Positions 18,754-31,920 of a stretch of DNA of 32,000 nucleotides are shown here, piece after piece. Both the position numbers and the translations under genes were made by a program. Source of the DNA: Candidatus Saccharimonadota bacterium. Lineage in GTDB: Bacteria > Patescibacteriota > Gracilibacteria > BD1-5 > UBA6164. Under the pieces are notes generated by a model. That model was not told where the DNA came from, did not search any database, and saw only the letters and a list, made by a program, of their open reading frames with translations. The stretch spans positions 720,001 through 752,000 of the forward strand of contig CP042461.1 of NCBI GenBank assembly GCA_004563595.2. Reading direction: 5' to 3'. Within the stretch, counting starts at the first letter, position 1. Each line of letters opens with the position of its first letter.

Positions 18754-18828
18754 ATGAAGACTTATCTAAAGAAAACCATATCATTGTTTTTAATTATTGC
18801 ATTTTTAAGTAGTAACCTTGTTTTTGCT
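18754..18828 (+). other. Sec signal peptide of the 1883-aa protein
   Basis: MKTYLKKTISLFLIIAFLSSNLVFA followed by ENDKK: basic n-region, hydrophobic core, and an A-x-A-like cleavage context. Confidence 0.7.
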
Positions 18829-21800
18829 GAAAATGATAAGAAAATAAGTAAAAAATTAACTGAAAAAGTTAAAACTATCAAAGAAAAGCAGAAGAAAAAA
18901 GAGAAGAAATTTGCTAAAGTAGTTTGAAAGGCAGATACAATTATCAAAAACTATCAGGAAAAAGTCAAAAAAAAATGAACTGGATATAATAAAAGAAATA
19001 AAGAAAAAATAGAGGCTGTTGTTAAAAAAGCAAAGAAAACAAAGCTAAAATTGATTGAAAGAGCAAATGAACTTTTAAAAGATAATCTTGAAAAAGATGT
19101 TGATGAAGAATTAGACTTATGAGTGATCACTTCAAAGGAAGCATGAGATCTCAAGCAAGAAATCCAGCCAAACTACCTCTTTGAGCTGCAAGAATTAGTA
19201 GGGACTGATATAGTTCCTGTAGATACGAATTTTTCAAACCAATGGGGGTTACAAAACATAGTAAATTGAGAAGTATGAAATAAACTCCTCTATACTTGAG
19301 AAAAAGTAACCGTTGCTGTAATAGATACGTGAGTAGATTTCTCTGTAGAAGATTTAAACTGAAAGCAGTGGAAAAGTGAAACTTGTGTAGATAGTGAATG
19401 AATAGCAATTCCAGGTTGATGTATGGAATGATGATATGATTTTGTAGATGATGATACCAATCCCTACCCAAGTGATAACTATACTCACGGAACCAATGTA
19501 TCATGAATCATCTGAGCAAATACAAATAATAGTGTTTGAATATCAAGTATCGCAAATGATAACGTTGAGATCATGAGTTTGAGAGCCTGTTGTGGTCAAT
19601 GAAACTTCTTCTGAGCGAATGATATTAGTAAAGCAATAAAATTTGCGGTGAATAATGGTGCTGATATTATTAATGCCAGCTTTGGTGGGCCTACGGATGC
19701 TCCTGAAATCAAAGAAGCTATAGAATATGCAAATAATGCATGAGTAACCATTGTAGTTGCTGCATGAAACTATGCTTCGAATAATGATACAAATCCAATG
19801 TATCCAGCAAATTATGCTAATGTGCTGAGTGTAGGATCTATAGATAGTACTGAAAATAGTTCATATTTTTCAAACTACTGAAATTCTGTAGATATTGCAG
19901 CTCCAGGCTCTACTGTATATACAGTAGATTTCAATAATACATATAGAACACTGGATGGGACAAGTTTTTCAACTCCTTTTGTTACCAGTGTTGTTGCGAG
20001 ATATAAATCTCAAGATGCCAGCTTATGAGTTGTTGATTTAAAAAATAAATTATTTATTGCTTCTATTCAAAATCCAGCTTTGAGTTGAAAAGTAAATAAT
20101 GGAATGCAGTTAAAGCTTGATGCGAGTAGTATTGAGAAGGCTTTGGTTGAGAGTGGAGAGGTTGTTGTGGAGGAAGAGTTTGATATACCCCTCCCTAACC
20201 CTCCCCTTCCAGGAGAGGGGACTTGAGGTGATGTTAGTTGAATAGAAATTGATGAGAGATATGTGAAGTTTATGAAACAAATTTCAAAGTTAAGAAAGTG
20301 AAAGATTTCTCAAGAAAGTACAAAGGATACGATAAGTCTTCAAGAAGTAAGTGAACTGGAAGCAGAGCTTCAGACTTTTATAACTTCTGAAAGAGTCAGG
20401 CTTCTTTCTATTAATGGAGTTGATGAACTGAAAATATCTCGTTATATATCATTACTCAACGATCAACTTGATCTCGTAAAAAACTATAATACTACTATTA
20501 ATAATGAATCCAACCAAACAACAGTACAAAGTAGCTCAGTCCAAGATTTTCAAGCATTTTCAATAGAAACCCTCTCAAATCTAGGAATAGAACAAAAAGA
20601 AGCTTCAAAAGATATTCAAACTCTTTCTGATATGAGTTCTTTTAGTTTCTGAGATAGCGTGGAGAATATAGGAAGGCTTTCAGATTATAAAATGATTTTA
20701 GAAAGTAGAGTTCCAACCTCATCAGAAGAAATATCATTTTTAGCTACAGAGTCTTTTGTCCCTGTTCAATTAGAAGACTTACAAGAGAATGAAGAAGTTA
20801 TCATTTCTTCAGACATACAAGACCTAGCAACAGAGTTACATAATAATCCTGTTTCTATATTTAATTATGTTAAAAATAATATAGAGTATGAACCATACTC
20901 AGGAGTAAAGAAAACATCTACTCAGTGTCTGAGAGATAGATCATGTAATGATTATGATAGCTCTTCCCTTCTTATATCACTCCTCAGAGCTTCTGGAATC
21001 CCAGCAAGATATAAACAAAGTCATATTCTCGTATGAAAAGACAATGTAAATAAACTCCTCTGAGTATCTGATATTAAATCAGCATATTACGCATTATCTC
21101 AAGGAAAAATTCCTGTATATATAATGAGCAATGGGAGTCCTATTGATAGCAATTTTGAAACTGCTGATTTCTCAGGAGTCACTCAACTCGTTGTAAAATG
21201 GACCTTTGCAGAAATGTATTATGACTATGATCATAGGTGAGCAAATCATAGTAATGATGTATATTTTTCTGATATTACTACTCAGGCTGAATTAGATACA
21301 AGGCTTGTTGATTACTCTAATAGAGAATGGTTAAAGATAGATCCAACTTTCAAGTTTACTCTCGTTTGAAATGAGGTTTCTGATTCTCATGTAATAGAAG
21401 ACTCTACCATTGATACTCACACATTCTTTGAATCATATTTACAAACCTGAGATACTGATTGAGCATTAGAAGCTTATAAAAAGAAACTTATAGAAACTTC
21501 TCCTGCAACTGATGATACAGAATTAGCTTTATACAATTTCAATAAAAATAATCAAAATACTCACTTTGAAATGCTTCCAGTTACTTTTCCTTATTCTCGT
21601 ATTACATGAACAACAAGCAGTGGAGTAATAATAGAAGATAGTGCTTTTTCTACTATCTCAGATACTGAAAAACAAAAAATAGAAATAGAATTGAAAGACT
21701 CAACTACTTGAAGCGTAGTTCTAAAAAAATCATATAAAGTTACTGAAATAAATAATATTCCTCTCGATCTTCATTATCAATGAGCAACTCAAGCTGATAT

Positions 21801-24405
21801 AGATATTATAGAGAGTTATGGAAGTCTTCATTTAACTCCGAGTAATCTTGTAAATATACAACCAGCGTTTGTATGAGCGGAGTTTAACACTGTTGAATGA
21901 GAAACAATCACAGATAATATTCCTGTGAAAATTTGAGATCAATTGATTCTTACTTTTAGATATTTTGTAAATGGAGTAGAAACAAATGTAAGTTCAAAAT
22001 TTTCGACTGCATGAAATAGAGAAGGTATCTACTTAAACTTCTCAAAAATTGTTTCTGATACTATGGATACTGATTCAAAAGTACTCTTAGCATGAAACTG
22101 GGCTATTGCGAAAAAATATCTTGAAAGACTTGAAATAGCAAGTAATGAACTAGAGCAAATCTTTAATAGAGAAAATACTCTCAACTATTCAAGAGCTGTA
22201 GTTACACAAAATAGAATACTCAATGAAATAAATGGAGATCCTACTACTTTTGAATTTAAATGACTTACTCTTGATGCTCATAGTTATATTGGTGATTACT
22301 ATAGATGAACTGATTTAACGAATTCATATAAAAAGTATTCAAGTGAATTTTGAAAAATCTATGGACTCTATGCTTCAGAGCAAGAAGGACAAATCTTTGA
22401 TGATATTACAGGGTTAACTGGTATCTCAACAGTAAAAGGTCTTCAATATGCATATGCAAATCCTGCAGACTATACCATTCATAAAATTGATAGTTCAAAT
22501 AAATCAGTTATTGATAGTCTTATACTTTCTGAGAATACTAAGACTCTTATGGGAGCTTATGTAGATGAGTGAAGAACTATTACAACACCAAATAAGTTGG
22601 TGAAAAATCAAACTTGGGAAGGTTTGTTTTATACTGCAATTGATAGTGATGGAGAATGAGTGTATGCGATTGGTGAAGGGGTTGCGCAGAATGGTGGGTT
22701 TAGTGTTGATGAAATGCTTGATATGTGAGAAGGAGTAAATGGAGCTCTTATTGCTTGTATAGAAAATTGAGCAACAGAATTACTCGCAAATACCTGTAGT
22801 GCATTTAAAAATTATGAAACAGTTAACTTTAGTTATAGATGAATAGTAAAAAGTAATGATGAACAATCTGTAAAAGACTTATTTTCGTGGGAAGAAAGTA
22901 ATGGACAATTGATAACAACGAGTTATTTAAATTATGGATACCATAATCTTCTATTTACTAAAAATTGAGTTATTTTTGATAACTCATGAAAGGAAATAAA
23001 AAACTGAGATTATAAATATTTTATCTCATATTCTGATATCTCTACAAAACTCAAAAATCATTTTTCTGACCTAGAAAAAATGCACCTTTCTTTAGATGTA
23101 TGAACTTTTTTCTCAGATATAACATCAAGTGAGTATATATATTATTCTCCAAATCCTAATGCTGGAAATGTCTATTCTGTAAAGTGAGCTTTTTTAAAAA
23201 AGCTTAAGAAAACGTATCGTAAATGAGAGGTAAATACAGTTCAAGAATTACTTTGATTCCCAACTTGAGATGAATTATGATGAACAACAATAGAAAGCAA
23301 TGTTGGTTACAAGTATAAATCTCAACCATTTATAAATGGAAATTTATACAGATATGAAAATTTTTATAATATATTTCCTAATACCGTTTATACATACTGA
23401 GCCCTAGAAGAAACCCTTACTAATAATTGATCTGTGACAGCTCTATGACTCCCCGCAGATGATCCAGATTTCTCTGGTAAAAATGATATTATTCAAGAGT
23501 ATGATAGTTGAGTGTTAATAAAGTTAAATCAAGATTGAGAAACAAACTTAGTGTCAGATAAAAGATACGCTTGTTATTTAGCTAATAATTCTGAAATTAC
23601 AAGTAAAACAAAATTAAGACTTGCATTAATTCACTGATTTTTTTCAGAAATTCAAGACGTAATATGATTAGTCCCCGAATTGATTTTTGGAATATCAAAA
23701 TGAATTATAAGATCTGATTTAGAAATTAGAAAAACAGAATTTTATCTTGATGACATAAAAGATTTATTAATTGAAGTAAGTAAGATAAGGCTTAGTTCAA
23801 TAAAAAACTTTTTTCTAGCTACCTGAAATGGTATTTGAAGTGCTTTATATGATGAAATGAATAGTAGTGATACTACTTGTCCTCTCAGAGAAAGCTATGT
23901 GATTTGAAAAATATGGTGAACATTTGTAACGGCATGATTATGATGAGTATGAACTGCAACAAAAATTGAAAAGATTAACGAAGCAAAAAGATTAGCGAAA
24001 TTAATTAATGCATGAAAATTTGATGATATTGTAAAAGCCAAAAAATTTGCAGATGGTAAATTTAATATAAATTGATTTTATGAATTGAATTATCATTTCT
24101 GAAAACATGGTGAAAATTTTTGATTAAACGTAGATAATTTAAATTTAAAATACAAATATCAAGAAATAGCAGAAAAATTTATAATTAAAGGGGGCTGAAA
24201 TAATGTACTTGAATTTTTACAAAAATCATGAAACGCACATGATTATATTAGAATTAATTATAGTGATGAAATAATTTGAATCTACCGTTTAGAAACAAAA
24301 GAAATTACAACTTTCTTTGAGTTTGACAATATAGATAATATGAATTCTAAAATAAAACAAATACTAAATAATATAAATACAAGTAAAATTTCTTGAAACT
24401 ATTAA
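18754..24405 (+). CDS. giant secreted multidomain protein (1883 aa): signal peptide, Lys-rich coiled coil, subtilase S8, transglutaminase-like domain, long unknown region, distinct C-terminal module (polymorphic-toxin-like)
   Basis: A single table-25 frame was verified at 19324, 20659, 21901, 22981 and 24001 (all in the same phase) and ends at TAA 24403-24405. See the domain sub-features below. Confidence 0.85.
19240..20130 (+). other. peptidase S8 (subtilase) domain with an intact Asp/His/Ser triad
   Basis: Asp is in VAVIDTGVD (codon 19324-19326, with the following Gly encoded by TGA at 19330-19332). His is in HGTNVSGIIGA (19486-19488). The oxyanion Asn is in AAGN (its Gly is TGA at 19765-19767). 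Ser is in GTSFSTPFVTSVVA (19963-19965). Confidence 0.9.
20188..20232 (+). repeat. G+C-rich hairpin-like patch inside the coding sequence, related to the arms of the 18314-18512 element
   Basis: The sequence cccctccctaaccctccccttccaggagaggggacttgaggtg is about two-thirds G+C, in a gene of roughly 30% G+C. It shares ctcccctt, aggagag and gaggtga, in the same order, with the inverted-repeat arms. It encodes PLPNPPLPGEGTGGD in a linker. Confidence 0.35.
20850..21360 (+). other. transglutaminase-like (papain-fold) core domain
   Basis: RSCNDYDSSSLLISLLRASGIPARY carries the Cys at 20944-20946. It is followed by WTFAEMYY and EWLKIDPTF (Asp present). The position usually occupied by the catalytic His aligns by eye with Trp. 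Confidence 0.7.
24040..24402 (+). other. C-terminal module of about 120 aa, candidate toxin domain (family not recognised)
   Basis: FNINGFYELNYHFGKHGENFG carries an H-x2-K-H motif at 24094-24108. It follows a Gly-rich hydrophobic segment, IWGTFVTAGLGGVGTATKIEK. It sits directly upstream of two small paralogous genes. Confidence 0.4.
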
Positions 24406-24422: not shown

Positions 24423-24824
24423 ATGGAAAATAGAACTTACGTTTGCCCAAATTGTTGATTTAATGATTTAGCATGAACATATAGTGTATGTAGGGTATGT
24501 ATGTGGGAGGAAGATTTAGATTGAAAAATATATCCCCTTATAGCAACTTGACCTAATAATAGCTTGTATGATGAACAACAAAAAATTATAAAAAAATATC
24601 CATTATCGATCAAAAAAACTATTTTTTTTGATAAGTATGAGAATAAAAATTTTATGATAATGCGATCAAGTAGTTGGAAGCCAATAGATATAGGAGATAT
24701 AAAATATAAAGATAAGCCTTTCATTGAAAAATGGTATTATGAAGATTATATAAAATCTATTTATTGAGATGATTACAATCATTTATTTGAAGAAGCTCAA
24801 GAATATAACCCTACTGATTATTAA
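24423..24824 (+). CDS. CPCC-type cysteine-rich zinc-ribbon protein (133 aa), candidate immunity protein 1
   Basis: MENRTYVCPNCGFNDLAGTYSVCRVCMWEEDLDG...GPNNSLYDEQQ matches the CxxC...CxxCxWE(D/E)D signature of the Cysteine-rich CPCC domain. The C-terminal part reads KDKPFIEKWYYEDY...EAQEYNPTDY. Confidence 0.8.
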
Positions 24825-25663: not shown

Positions 25664-28600
25664 ATGAAATTTAAAAAACTACTATCCCTACTAACCATCT
25701 CAACACTCCTCATATCTACAACGAACTTACAACACGTAAACGCAAACGTAGATATAGGTTTTGATGTGAGTAATGCAAATGAAATAAATATCCCTGCATT
25801 TCCTGAGGATATTGATACAGCTCCTACTGATTGGTCGGAGACAGATTGGGATTCAGAGACTATCCTCCCTGCAGATAAATTTGCTTATGAAAAGAAACTT
25901 GAAGAGCTTCTAAATGCAGGTGATTTTGAAGCTGTAAAAAATCTGGAGATGAAAAAGACTTCTCTGTCTGATGATGCCTCACTTGAAATCTATGATGTAC
26001 CAAAAGAGGTGCAAGAAGTAGTAAAAGATCATTATGAAAATAGTGGTTGAATTTCTGTACAAGGAGTCTGAAAACCCCTTACATTAAAAGAAAAATTACA
26101 AAAACTCCCTTCTCCTTACAAAGGAAAGGAGCTTGATGTGAGGTCTGAAGATCTTACAATAGAAAAAGAACTCCCTGAAATTTCAAAAAATAAATTGAAA
26201 ACAGTGAAGAAAAAATCACTCCAAGCAATCTCTCTTGGGAAAGCGAACATTTGAAATCTACAATTAGAGGAGCAAGTTGAAAAAGATAGAAGTATTTCTC
26301 TTCAAGGAGTTAATACTCCACTTATAGAATACTATGACGGAATCAGTAATAATAATGTTGATTATGCATTATACTCCCTTACCTCTCTTCAATCTGAAAA
26401 TGGTCTGATATGAAACTCTAGCAGAAATACCTATGAGTTTTTACAACTTTTAAAATCATTTAAGAAAACAGATAACTCAGCATATTACAAAGCAAAGAAT
26501 TACTTTCTCAATCTCGTACCAAGAAATAACCTAGAACTCGTATACAAAATACAAGTTATGAAAGATGAATGACAAGATTATTCTTCTCTTGTAACAAGCC
26601 TCAAAAACTCGATGAACTCAGATAAAGGATACCCTCTTTTAGAAGGATATGATTCTGATATTTATACTAGTATTGAAACTCTCAATCTCCTCACTGATCT
26701 CAATGACTCAGCATACATTGATCCTATGAATTATATACTTTGAAATATTTGATCTACTGGAGAAATTAAATATTACCTTGATTGATGAAAAAATAGTTCT
26801 CTCCTTTCATACAAAGTATTACAAACACTGGAAAAACTTACATTTGCTGATAAAGATACTTATATCACAAAAATACGTGATAACTTAGCTATAAATAGTG
26901 AGAGAAGTACACTAGAGTCATCTCTATACGGTCTTTTACTTGAAAAAGATGGAAATGTACTCGATGAAGTTCAATTCATGAAAAATGACTTAAAAAAACT
27001 TCAATCTTATGACTGAAGTTTTACTGATGATCTGACTACTATATACACTTCCCTCTTTCTTGCTGAAGCTGATTTAGTCATTGAATCCGTTACTCCAGTT
27101 TGAACACTCAAACATAAAGATGCTGCAAAACTTACGGTAACAATTAAAAATAATGGATATAAGAAATCTCTCCCTGTATGAATCCATACATATACAAATA
27201 AATATTATCATGCATGAAAAGCAACAGCTATTAGTGATAGTATAGATTCAAATAGTACTGTCATATTCGAACTTGATTTCAGTTCAACCCCTAGATTTAA
27301 GTGAGATGTAGAGTTTGATTTTTTCCTTGATAATCAAGGAGATATAAATTATGAAGATAATTGGTTCAACTCAGCATTTAATTTTGTAAATACTTCTGAT
27401 AATTCCCCAGTACTTCCGATGAATTATTCAGCTTTCTCACACGAAAGTAGTGCATGACTTGGAATTGCGGCTATTTGGAATGATACTGGTGATATAGATC
27501 TACAAGAATATGTAGTACTTGTAAGAAATAAAGGAGAGTCTGATTGGAAAGAAATTGTATTGAATAAAACTCTCTACCCTGAAGGTGCCTTTATCTCATG
27601 ATTTAATGAATGAGATAAAGTGGAGGTAACAATGTGAGTAAGATTAGCTGATAGCACACTCTCATATTTTTCAAATTTTTCTGAGTTTACTATTACTCCG
27701 ACAGCCAATAAGCTCACTTCTAATGTAAATTGAAAACTATACTCAAATAAACTCTGAGTATATAATGAACTCTTAAAGTGAAATTGATACAGTACAACTT
27801 CTGAACCAGGTTGAGATTTTGATATCTCAGTTCCTGCTTGAAAAACTATTATATCTATTGATAAAGGCTCAGGATACGAGAGCTTTGAAAATAGTATTAC
27901 TGCTGATGGAGTAACTGACATAACTTGATATGAATATCATACAAGACTCAAAGTTGATGCAGAAAAACCAGTAATGTCAGATTTAAAATTTAATGATAAT
28001 TTTGCTATAAAAAATAGGAAAACAAAAAATATTATTATATCATGAACTGATAATATAGGCATTAGAGAGTTTCATTTATATTATTATGATCCAGAATATG
28101 CTTCTTGGATATTTGAAAATAGTATGACTCCTGATTATGGACAATCCACTTATACTTGGAGTATTCCAGAAACTCTTCTCTGAACTTGATATAAACTCAA
28201 AACTGTTGCTATAGATTACAAATGAAATGAGTCTCTCCCACTTGAATATGGTCCATTTGAGATAATAGATTGAACAGCTCCAGAATGAACCATTGAAATC
28301 ACATGATTAGAGGCATGAAGCAAATGGAAACTTTGAGATACAAAAGAGTTTACTTGGAACGTAGATCTTGTTTATGATCTACAGCAAATAGTAAATGTAA
28401 AACTCCATTATGAAAATGCGTTCACATATATTGCGAATTCTATTGATGTAATAAAAACATCTGAATCATATACTATCCCTATTGATTCAAAGTATTTGGC
28501 AAATGTCTGATATATAAGCTTACTGGCTTGTGATGTACAAAATAACTGTAGTACACTTGAGTCACCAAGATTTGAAATATATGAAGAAGAGTTCCAGTCA

Positions 28601-29896
28601 AAATGACCATGGAATCAACCAAGTGATATATGAATAAGTCTCTCAAACTGAAATTACAATAGATATATAGAAAAAGTATTTTTCTGAGAAAATGAAACTA
28701 TAGAAGTTATATTTTCTGAATTTGATAAATATACTTGAAGAGACTATAGACTCGTATATAGAAAATATGAAAACTGAGTTTGGTGAGATGAACAAGTAGT
28801 AAAACAATATAATAATCCAAGTAGTTGACCTTCTCATTCATTTAATTCAATAAAGAGTGTGAAACTAGGAAATAAAATTTGAATTACTTACAGTGATTTT
28901 TACAAAGACCTCACTGCTTCATGATTTGGATATGATGAGTCTGAAATATATGCGATAACTATTGAGAATAGTATTCTTGGAAATCTGACACAAATAAGTA
29001 ATGATACAACTCTTTCATATAATCCTGAATTAGAATTTGATGACAATGGTTTATATGTAATATGGAAAGAATGATATAGTATTACTACAGAAACATGAAA
29101 TAGGAAATTAAAATTACGAAAGGCAGATATAAACTGAATATGGAATAATGAAATTATACTGAGTGAAGATTCAGTTTCATACTATGATTTAGAATATCAA
29201 AATAATAGATTATTTATTTCATATGTATTTGAAGATAATCTGAAACTAAAAGAATATAATTACTCTACAAGCACTTGGAATAATGAAATTCTCATAGGAG
29301 CAGAAACCGGAATAAAAGAAAACAAAATATTTCACAGAAATGGTACAGAAATATATGATCTATTTCTGAAAAAAATTACACCTAACACAACAGGTTTAGA
29401 GAAATATCATCTCATTCACAAGAAAGTAGATCTCACTTGATGAACTGCAAATATATTATTAGAGAAAAATATAACAGCAGCTTCAGATTTAGAAAGCCTT
29501 CAAAAATATACGATTGAAAATAAAGATGGTACTACATATCACCTTGTTTATACAAAACTTTCTCTTACTGAAAACGGGGATAAAATTAGTATAAATTATT
29601 CAGAATATGGAGATAATTTAAATACAAACTATTTAGTTCTCTCTCCTGCTACAAATATAATTTCAGGATCTAATTACTTGTTTACTAGCAAATTAAATGA
29701 TGTGTTAAAACTATGATATGTTTCAACTATCTGATGAGTAACTAAATTACAATATGTCACATGAGATTTTACTCCAAAATCATCTGAATTTAGTTTTCCT
29801 GAATTTGACATTGACGTAACAATGAATCTCAATGAATTTAGAGTTACATTCATATTCCTCTGATACAGATTTAGTTTCTGGCTAAATTTACTTTAA
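25664..29896 (+). CDS. large secreted surface protein (1410 aa): prenyltransferase-like alpha/alpha repeats, CARDB-like and Ig-like beta domains
   Basis: Signal peptide is MKFKKLLSLLTISTLLISTTNLQHVNA. The table-25 frame was verified at 27599, 28622 and 29879 and ends at TAA 29894-29896. It extends track ORF 25664-26050. Confidence 0.85.
26330..27060 (+). other. prenyltransferase/terpene-cyclase-like alpha-alpha toroid repeats
   Basis: Recurrent Q/S-x2-(D/N)G-aromatic repeats: LQSENGLIGNS, NSDKGYPLLEG, GSTGEIKYYLDGG and LQSYDGSFTDD. Confidence 0.4.
27068..27330 (+). other. CARDB-like domain
   Basis: ADLVIESVTPVGTLKHKDAAKLTVTIKNNGYKKSLPVGIHTY... matches the usual DLvv-x-vtvtvkNqG pattern. Confidence 0.5.
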
Positions 29897-29934: not shown

Positions 29935-31920
29935 ATGAAAAAAATACTTTCAATACTTTTGATTTTCTGATTATTACTTCAAAGTTTATTTGTTACAGGT
30001 ACTGCTTATGCAGTAGAAGAAACAACTGTAGATATTGATGGATTATATATGCCTCAATTTGAAGATCCTCTTTTTAAAGAAAATTTTCTAAACAATATAA
30101 TCAAAAATAACTGATTTAATTTACAAGCAGGAGATAACTGAATACCAATTACTACACATGGAGCAAACTATCCTACATACTCTCCTGATGGGAACTATAT
30201 TGTTTATTCTAATAAAGATGGTTCACACTATATATATAAAAAAAATAGTTCTGATAATTCAACTGGTATCCAGTTAGGAACAAAAATAAGTCGAGCTCTT
30301 GTTTATACTCCTGATGGTAATAATCTTATATATACAAATTATAATGATTGATATGCTATATATAAGAAAAGTGCTAATGATCTTGCTAACTGAAACTGAA
30401 TTACAAATTATTATTGATATTACCCTCAAGTTTCACCTGATTGAAATGATTTATATTTTGTAATAAAATGATCTAATACTTATAAAGTCTATAAAAAAGC
30501 AATAAATGCACCAATAAATGACTGAGATCTAATAATTGATAAAGAAGTATACTGGATATCACTTTCTCCAGATTGAAATAATTTAATATATAAAGACTGA
30601 GCTAATAATCTTTTATACAATAGAGATTTAGTAAATAACACAACTAAACTAATTACAAGTGTTGGTTGAGCAACATTCACATATTCTCCAGATTGAAAAT
30701 ACCTAATTTATACAAATGAAAGTGATTGATATAAACTTTACAAAAAAGATCCAAACACCTTGTCTAATGGGACGGCAATAAATAGTGTATCTTCATTCTA
30801 CCCTGCATTTTCTCCTGATTGAAAATACTTAGTTTATACGAATATCAGTGATGGATATAAAATGTATAAAATTGAGATGCCTTTTGTCACTGAACTATGA
30901 TCAATAACATCTACTCAAACAGTTATTAATTCTAATAATGAAAATTCAGTAGATTTTTCAATTAGCTGAATTAAGGATACAGATAGTGGAAATACAATCA
31001 CTTATAGCTATTCTTTTAATAATTCCACTTTTACAAATCTACCTGTTACAAATACAAGTCCAATATCAAATGGGACTTATAATTTTAATTTAGATTTATC
31101 AAGTAGACCATCTTGAGATATTACGGTATATATAAGAGCAAATGATGGAAGCGAAAATTCTAATGTAGTAAGTATAACTCTTGTAAAAAATAATACCCCT
31201 ATTCTTGATTCATTAACTTCAACTCAAACAGATATAAACTTAGATAATGTTTTAAGTCTAGATTTAAAAGTGAATTGAATCAATGATCCTGATACATCAA
31301 ACACTCTAAGCTATAGTTACTCTTTTGATAATATCGATTTTACTGATTTAACGGATACTTGAATCTCACCAATTTCAGATGGAAATTATAATTTTGATTT
31401 AAATCTCTCATGACAAGATGATGGATTAGTCAACATATATGTAAAAACAAATGATTGATATGAAAATTCAAACACGGTAAGTTTAGCTTTAAATAAAAGT
31501 GCTACATTATTAGTCCCAACTGCACCTTCAGCTGTGAATACAAATAATATATCATTAAACTGAGCAACATATAGTTGGACTGATAATTCAGAAGGTGACA
31601 ATAGAGAGTATAAACATGTCATTAAAGATCAAGATAATAATATTATAGTTGATGAAATTTGAGCAAATGCTACAAATATTATAGAATCATGATTAACTCC
31701 AAATACGTCATATCAAAGAAAAATATGTGCAGTAAATGATGCATGAGAAGCTTGTAGTATACTAATAAATTTTACTACAAAAATAGAAGTAACATGATGA
31801 AAAACAACTACCTTTGACTTTGCATGAATTGTCATCAATATTGTTGAAACACTTGAGATGTTTAAAGTAGAATTTAATATCTGAGAATTTAAAATTAATT
31901 TTAGTATTGAAAAGATATAA
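29935..31920 (+). CDS. secreted TolB-like beta-propeller protein with tandem Ig-like repeats and an FN3-like domain (661 aa)
   Basis: Signal peptide is MKKILSILLIFGLLLQSLFVTGTAYA. There are six PD40-type blades (YSPDGNYIVY, YTPDGNNLIY, VSPDGNDLYF, LSPDGNNLIY, YSPDGKYLIY, FSPDGKYLVY). The frame ends at TAA 31918-31920. Confidence 0.85.
30150..30880 (+). other. six PD40 (WD40-like) beta-propeller repeats
   Basis: The x-SPDG-x-x-L-(I/V)-Y ... Y-K-(I/L/V)-Y-K-K periodicity repeats six times. Several of the SPDG Gly codons are TGA. Confidence 0.8.
30901..31518 (+). repeat. intragenic tandem duplication: two 309-nt (103-aa) Ig-like units
   Basis: Unit 1 (30901-31209) reads SITSTQTVINS...YSYSFNNSTFTNL...ISNGTYNFNLDLS...VYIRANDGSENSN. 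Unit 2 (31210-31518) reads SLTSTQTDINL...YSYSFDNIDFTDL...ISDGNYNFDLNLS...IYVKTNDGYENSN. Confidence 0.8.
31516..31780 (+). other. fibronectin type III-like domain
   Basis: PTAPSAVNTNNISLNGATYSWTDNSEGDNREYKHVIKD...GLTPNTSYQRKICAVNDAGEA fits the FN3 pattern of a conserved W, a T-x-Y and an A-x-N-x-x-G. Confidence 0.55.

Follow-up and report, generated by a model that had tools for sequence, protein, structure and literature searches.

A probable colicin D-like toxin tip on a Sec-secreted carrier, followed by genes for two predicted CPCC immunity proteins, in a bacterium with UGA=Gly

The window analyzed in this work, i.e., the whole stretch of 32,000 nucleotides (nt) from contig CP042461.1 (G+C content 28%), includes a gene at 18754-24405 encoding a large secreted carrier protein of 1,883 amino acids (aa), the C-terminal part of which (23890-24405) had been picked out from the sequence alone as a candidate novel toxin domain with an H-x2-K-H-G-E motif. 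Most probably, this gene encodes a Sec-secreted protein of the polymorphic-toxin type with a colicin D-like tip of the BECR fold, predicted to act as a ribonuclease (RNase), and it is followed by two genes for immunity proteins of the CPCC type. The locus is organized as follows:

18754..24405, plus strand: carrier and toxin gene, 1,883 aa in the code-25 translation, with 83 UGA=Gly codons and a TAA stop codon at 24403-24405
18754..18828, plus strand: Sec-type signal peptide (MKTYLKKTISLFLIIAFLSSNLVFA), recognized by its sequence and a 19-residue Kyte-Doolittle hydrophobicity of 1.83; the cleavage site is a predicted one
19297..20052, plus strand: Peptidase_S8 (subtilase) domain, aa 182-433 (Pfam E=3.4e-45)
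20842..21012, plus strand: transglutaminase-like core, aa 697-753 (Pfam E=7e-8)
23890..24072, plus strand: Gly-rich junction or linker ahead of the toxin tip, aa 1713-1773, with no Pfam pre-toxin domain and too weakly hydrophobic for a membrane helix
24073..24378, plus strand: toxin tip (aa 1774-1875) of the BECR type, assigned to the CdiA-CT(O32:H37)/colicin D-like family as a divergent member
24094..24114, plus strand: motif H1781-F-G-K1784-H1785-G-E1787 on predicted helix 1, with the predicted catalytic His/Lys/His
24298..24318, plus strand: K-E-I-T-T-F-F, counterpart of the family strand-4 'R-E-I-R-T-F-Y', in which a 93%-conserved Arg is replaced by Thr
24423..24824, plus strand: immunity gene 1, 133 aa (PF14206 E=9e-8), starting 17 nt past the toxin stop codon
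24966..25343, plus strand: immunity gene 2, 125 aa (PF14206 E=2.5e-9), starting approximately 560 nt past the toxin stop codon

The gene model depends on the genetic code, which is code 25 (UGA=Gly) and not code 4 over the whole window (1-32000), because TGA stands at invariant glycines of housekeeping genes: in the P-loop of adenylate kinase (GxGKGT), in the 'HIGH' motif of GltX and in the 'DGNRRW' motif of UppS, with further TGA-encoded glycine positions in ClpP and Dcd. Translation of 23890-24405 with table 11 produced 14 in-frame stops besides the terminal TAA, every one of them a TGA, and their positions were exactly those of the glycines in the peptides quoted in the original prediction; both quoted peptide strings were recovered exactly with code 25. 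After TGA was taken as a sense codon, the summed length of the open reading frames (at least 100 aa) in the whole window increased from 2,220 to 14,889 aa, and the carrier/toxin frame was unbroken over 1,883 codons. Tools working with table 11 gave only fragments in the window. Code 25 is used by the Gracilibacteria and Absconditabacteria. The 1,883-aa protein was not found in a collection of 5.8 billion proteins with either the Gly or the Trp reading of UGA, a case showing how the genes of UGA=Gly bacteria stay hidden when gene calling and sequence checks follow the standard code.

The signal peptide was the sole segment of the carrier with the hydrophobicity of a membrane helix (usual threshold approximately 1.6). 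The subtilase domain had all three triad motifs in place, namely D191 (VIDTG), H245 (HGT) and S404 (GTSFSTP). In the transglutaminase core Cys731 was kept, and the Pfam alignment ended ahead of the His/Asp part; judged by this sequence, it may be an inactive domain of the anchoring type, as described by Zhang et al. (2012). It was located after the subtilase domain and not straight after the signal peptide. Since subtilisin and 'inactive transglutaminase' are among the modules listed for the Sec-dependent polymorphic toxins (Zhang et al., 2012), the overall architecture of the carrier fits this class, and the complete polymorphic toxin layout described there was found in the locus: a signal peptide, an S8 peptidase, a transglutaminase, a C-terminal tip and two downstream immunity genes. 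Pfam produced no match in the last 260 residues of the carrier. The Gly-rich segment ahead of the tip, proposed earlier to resemble a PT-TG-like junction, found no support as such: PF14449 gave no match at E<=1 in either aa 1621-1883 or the full protein, and PT-TG preceded the tip in none of the relatives examined, in which RHS-core, PT-HINT or PT-VENN junctions were found instead.

Direct database searches with the tip module were negative: there was no match in Pfam, NCBIfam or the PDB sequences; word-indexed protein searches, for which UGA was read as Gly or an alignment combining the Gly and Trp readings was used, returned no match, the query itself included; and at the DNA level GTDB genomes, JGI metagenomes and IMG/VR yielded no relatives of the module. 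Colicin_D (PF11429) did not match the window module at E<=1, nor did it match the relatives tested.

The relatives were therefore sought with the two CPCC paralogs of the window as bait. In Chitinophaga rupis (NZ_FOBB01000012, locus L001) a CPCC gene was located directly 3' of a gene for an RHS toxin, whose tip, following a DPxGL motif, reads '...LAEHFQKHVIDQQEFGDITQAEYL...KEIRTYYIDDG'; the window tip has the same layout, '...LNYHFGKHGENFG...KEITTFFEFDN'. The Chitinophaga tip had eight relatives in the protein collection, and a profile of these relatives retrieved 873 representative clusters at E<=1e-3, in many of which the tip forms the very C-terminal end of a protein of 1,000-4,200 aa. Their carriers were diverse, including Fil_haemagg/CdiA proteins with TPS and ShlB neighbours, RHS and PT-HINT proteins, eCIS_core cargo and a single SLH/VWA surface protein, and the tip family is clearly shuffled among many of them. 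There is no Pfam model for this family, which is why the module could not be placed at first sight. On this account the word 'novel' held only in part: the family lies outside Pfam, yet it is a large one that includes a solved structure (PDB 8EY4, see below).

The gene pairing was consistent. Among the carrier-borne or cassette members with readable downstream sequence, a CPCC gene followed the tip directly in seven loci out of seven (L001, L004, L007, L008, L009, L010 and L014). The tips borne by RHS, PT-HINT, eCIS and CdiA carriers (for example, L001, P0012, P0023, P0025 and P0066) are homologous to the window tip, are situated at the extreme C-terminus and have the CPCC gene directly 3'; P0066 itself is an orphan tip cassette followed by a CPCC gene. 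Compared with the window module, these standard-code relatives have other carriers and an identity of approximately 25% at best. A subfamily of small proteins (P0007, P0008 and P0100; about 145-190 aa), consisting of a signal peptide and the domain, had the motif form nearest to that of the window, 'HFQKHGAEFG'. For this small standalone secreted form (P0100; L011, 2501-3067) no CPCC gene was present in its one locus with readable downstream sequence. A second metagenome scan, using a CPCC alignment as bait, brought only two uninformative standalone CPCC loci. One further candidate, P0064 (5,306 aa, with 17-22 'stretches'), was discarded as a false positive produced by weak scores, each insignificant by itself, summed over Ig-like tandem repeats. 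In locus L002 (2803-8554) another RHS toxin of Chitinophaga, whose tip is a different one, was followed by a gene for a 373-aa protein and then by an orphan CPCC gene of 77 aa; a homolog of the 373-aa gene was also present after the CPCC gene in L001 (10286-11419). This arrangement is reminiscent of the shuffling of cassettes that polymorphic toxin loci typically show.

The fold of the family was obtained from an alignment of eight sequences, for which AlphaFold gave a model with a pLDDT of 92.7 and a pTM of 0.84. It consists of helix 1 carrying the H, K and H residues, an E-F-G loop, helix 2, four antiparallel strands, the fourth of which bears R-T, and a C-terminal helix. The first match of this model in a Foldseek search of the PDB was 8ey4_A, the CdiA-CT toxin of Escherichia coli O32:H37 (probability 1.00, TM 0.60/0.68), and ranks 2-6 were taken by the tRNase domains of colicin D (probability 0.99). 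The former was also reached by sequence, since a profile of 40 family members searched against all PDB sequences detected 8ey4_A with E=0.0019 and the alignment 'GHWTKHGKEF...PRTMF'. The partner chain in the complex, 8ey4_I, and the immunity protein solved alone, 8ey3_A, are both named 'Cys_rich_CPCC domain-containing protein', so that the pairing of toxin and CPCC protein deduced from the gene order has also been caught in a crystal structure. Thus, the BECR kind of fold suggested previously agrees with the structural matches of the family.

Membership of the window module in this family was accepted only when three approaches agreed, i.e., a profile of 154 sequences, hhalign and BLASTP to P0066. 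With the family hidden Markov model the window module scored 18.6 bits (E=1e-4 at Z=1000) in a collinear alignment over profile positions 10-88 of 96; the best of 999 shuffled sequences reached 9.1 bits. The hhalign comparison of the module with the family resulted in P=2.1e-5 over 74 columns, and BLASTP with P0066 in E=3e-7 (100 aa aligned, 25% identical). A phmmer search with the module detected 21 of 155 members at E<0.01, the top score being 18.3 bits and the best shuffled one 11.1 bits. The indels of the window module relative to the family fell mostly in loops of the family model. Within the aligned columns conserved at 85% or more, the window had the family residue in 11 of 14, H, K and H included, and F1789 and G1790 matched the last two residues of the E-F-G loop. 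The H-x2-K-H columns were conserved at 95%, 93% and 96%, respectively, in the 154 homologous domains (the rest being gaps) and were present in 8ey4_A as well. The motif noticed by eye was, hence, present as read, and the conservation of its H-x2-K-H residues among homologs, on which the original prediction had staked itself, was observed; the homology to tips of secreted carriers of the polymorphic-toxin type likewise bears out the proposal of a C-terminal toxin module.

The two downstream proteins scored 32.2 and 37.2 bits with PF14206 (Cys_rich_CPCC), over the cut-off of 24.5. They are paralogs with 39% identity and the same architecture, in which an N-terminal CPCC zinc ribbon is followed by a C-terminal extension of approximately 70 aa, and both matched the immunity chain 8ey4_I (E=6e-5 for gene 1 and E=1e-4 for gene 2). 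The link to 8EY4 is therefore direct on the immunity side, while on the toxin side it runs through the family, because the window module and the 8EY4 toxin fragment could not be aligned by BLASTP. Judging from this homology and from the gene order, the two CPCC proteins are expected to be the cognate immunity proteins of the tip and its predicted neutralisers, in agreement with the earlier suggestion that each of them be tried for neutralisation. The extension, with the pattern KDKP[FY][IV]EKW[YF]Y ... EAQxYNPTDY, had no match in Pfam.

Several results weigh against this interpretation of the locus. On the toxin side, the absent alignment with 8EY4 was accompanied by an insignificant BLASTP hit to the Chitinophaga tip (E=0.15) and by the failure of a shallow 9-sequence profile to detect the window module (E~7), and the hhalign probability was just 77%. 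The fold of the window module is predicted through its homology to the family, to which the AlphaFold model refers. The window also departs from the family at three conserved positions. The column with 96% Glu is N1788 in the window, with E1787 standing one residue earlier, so that the Glu of the 'K-H-G-E' reading is indeed present, but one position off the conserved one; one conserved Leu is a Gln; and the Arg of strand 4, conserved at 93% and found in the 8EY4 toxin too, is a Thr, with the neighbouring I, T and F kept. These departures could mean that the activity or the specificity is altered or lost. The strand-4 Arg is also replaced by L, N or K in a few members of the family, and its change to Thr was treated on this sequence basis as a variant position and no bar to membership. 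The immunity proteins of the window are without the N-terminal domain of about 110 aa of their standard-code relatives and possess an extra C-terminal extension; in the relatives, these proteins are approximately 157-190 aa long and have an N-terminal helical domain ahead of the CPCC domain. Furthermore, the searches at close range brought up no relatives of this carrier, hence none bearing another tip, and no orphan tip was present in the window, so that polymorphism of the locus itself would be hypothetical. Finally, no publication on the activity of the 8EY4 toxin came up in a literature search, for which reason the designation 'tRNase' rests on the similarity to the fold of colicin D.

Alternatively, the BECR domain could be degenerate and catalytically dead, kept perhaps for a binding or decoy role, with the CPCC genes as relics. 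The replacement of the strand-4 Arg by Thr and of the Glu by Asn fits such a state, as does the divergence of the window module, which was greater than that of any other member observed and left it without close relatives in the collections searched. We consider it unlikely, however, in view of the retention of H, K and H and of most of the other conserved columns, the tolerance of the Arg position to replacement elsewhere in the family, the open reading frame remaining intact over its full length, and the presence of two intact, tightly linked CPCC genes after the tip, as would be expected of a tip that is still toxic.

A much less probable alternative is that the module is an EndoU-like or some other unrelated, truly novel RNase toxin with only a convergent likeness to the CPCC-paired family. 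It was prompted by the impression of the His/Lys/His layout in the original prediction and is in line with the module itself having no sequence match in Pfam, NCBIfam or the PDB. Convergence is opposed by the nearly full-length collinear profile alignment and by the hhalign and BLASTP results, all well above the shuffled controls, and by the same immunity family being encoded downstream. The EndoU comparison specifically did not hold: EndoU_bacteria (PF14436) gave no match, and the best-ranking structures for the family model were 8EY4 and colicin D, with no EndoU structure at the top of the list. The notion that the protein is anchored in the membrane by the hydrophobic, Gly-rich stretch near its C-terminus, with the last approximately 140 residues forming the cytoplasmic tail of a surface protein, suggested by the stop-transfer-like succession of VIGKIWGTFVTAGLGGVGTA and a Lys-rich stretch, is hardly credible and was rejected on hydrophobicity, since the 19-residue Kyte-Doolittle value at the junction was at most 1.09-1.33, under both the signal peptide and the threshold, and it is further contradicted by the homologous tips always being placed at the C-terminus of secreted carriers and by the immunity genes downstream.

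The reading as a secreted toxin with a colicin D-like tip can be compared with the solved systems. In the toxin of CdiA-CT O32:H37 (8EY4; immunity protein alone in 8EY3), the first helix bears H-x2-K-H-G-x-E-F and the last strand x-R-T-x-F, with Arg at the place of the window Thr, and its immunity protein is a CPCC zinc ribbon homologous to both window proteins. This immunity protein is a bare CPCC domain of 70 aa, in contrast to the window proteins with their extension, which indicates that the CPCC ribbon alone can bind a toxin. The two systems also differ in delivery: the 8EY4 toxin is carried by a CdiA filament of two-partner secretion with a PT-VENN junction in a proteobacterium, while the window tip is borne by a Sec-secreted subtilase/transglutaminase carrier in a code-25 bacterium. 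Colicin D (tRNase domain structures 1V74, 1TFK, 1TFO and 5ZNM; PF11429; clan Colicin D/E5, BECR fold), the next structural match of the family model, cleaves the anticodon loops of tRNA-Arg without metal, and its catalytic general base, His611, is located on the helix of the BECR fold, made of a helix and a four-strand sheet (PMC9990079). Its immunity protein ImmD is not a CPCC protein, unlike those of the window.

By analogy with colicin D, H1781, K1784 and H1785 on helix 1 of the window tip would perform a metal-independent cleavage of RNA, most likely of tRNA, inside the target cell. In the producer, the CPCC proteins would bind and block the tip, after the example of the 70-aa CPCC protein in 8EY4. 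Following export via Sec, the tip may be freed by the intact subtilase domain and would then have to enter the target cell. A more far-reaching scheme, which we regard as rather unlikely, is that the tip and the two CPCC proteins make up a distinct subfamily limited to code-25 candidate-phyla bacteria, in which the Arg-to-Thr change and the displaced Glu would retarget the RNase to another RNA, the immunity recognition would proceed via the extension of approximately 70 aa rather than via the CPCC ribbon alone, and the toxin, released by Sec and subtilase, would be a weapon of an epibiont or predator against host or prey and not against kin.

The tip family may correspond to the Ntox26 domain of Zhang et al. 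(2012), albeit by description only. As described there, Ntox26 is an alpha+beta domain with KHxx[DE], Q, W and H, predicted to be a metal-independent RNase with two His, and is carried by proteins of the type II and type V secretion systems and by LXG, HINT, RHS and FilH proteins. On this one-line description, the sole basis of the comparison, the tip family agrees with Ntox26 in its motif (KHxxE, then Q), in the carriers on which it is found and in the activity predicted for it. Two differences were noted: the Ntox26 entry consulted lists no immunity protein, while the tip family is paired with CPCC, and K-H-G-E of the window corresponds to KHx[E] instead of KHxx[DE].

Taken as a whole, the locus is a real but ordinary module of bacterial warfare, a divergent member of a known family on a carrier and in a lineage in which it had not been noted before. 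With it, a polymorphic-toxin-type weapon is now documented in a UGA=Gly lineage, and a sequence that formerly could not be placed receives a specific annotation, consisting of a toxin tip, predicted catalytic residues and two immunity genes. The gene pairing also gives a role to PF14206, described in Pfam only as 'Cysteine-rich CPCC', as the immunity protein repeatedly paired with a large family of colicin D-like tips; apart from the PDB entries 8EY3 and 8EY4, no description of this toxin-CPCC pairing was found in the searchable literature.

The immunity genes were followed by two further genes for large proteins with signal peptides, at 25664-29896 (1,410 aa) and 29935-31920 (approximately 661 aa). 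Both proteins finish in a similar beta-strand-like tail (...EFRVTFIFLGYRFSF... and ...FKVEFNIGEFKINFSI..., respectively), which is possibly a C-terminal sorting or anchoring signal shared by the two. The second of them, at 29935-31920, contained repeated 'YSPDGN-L-Y' units.

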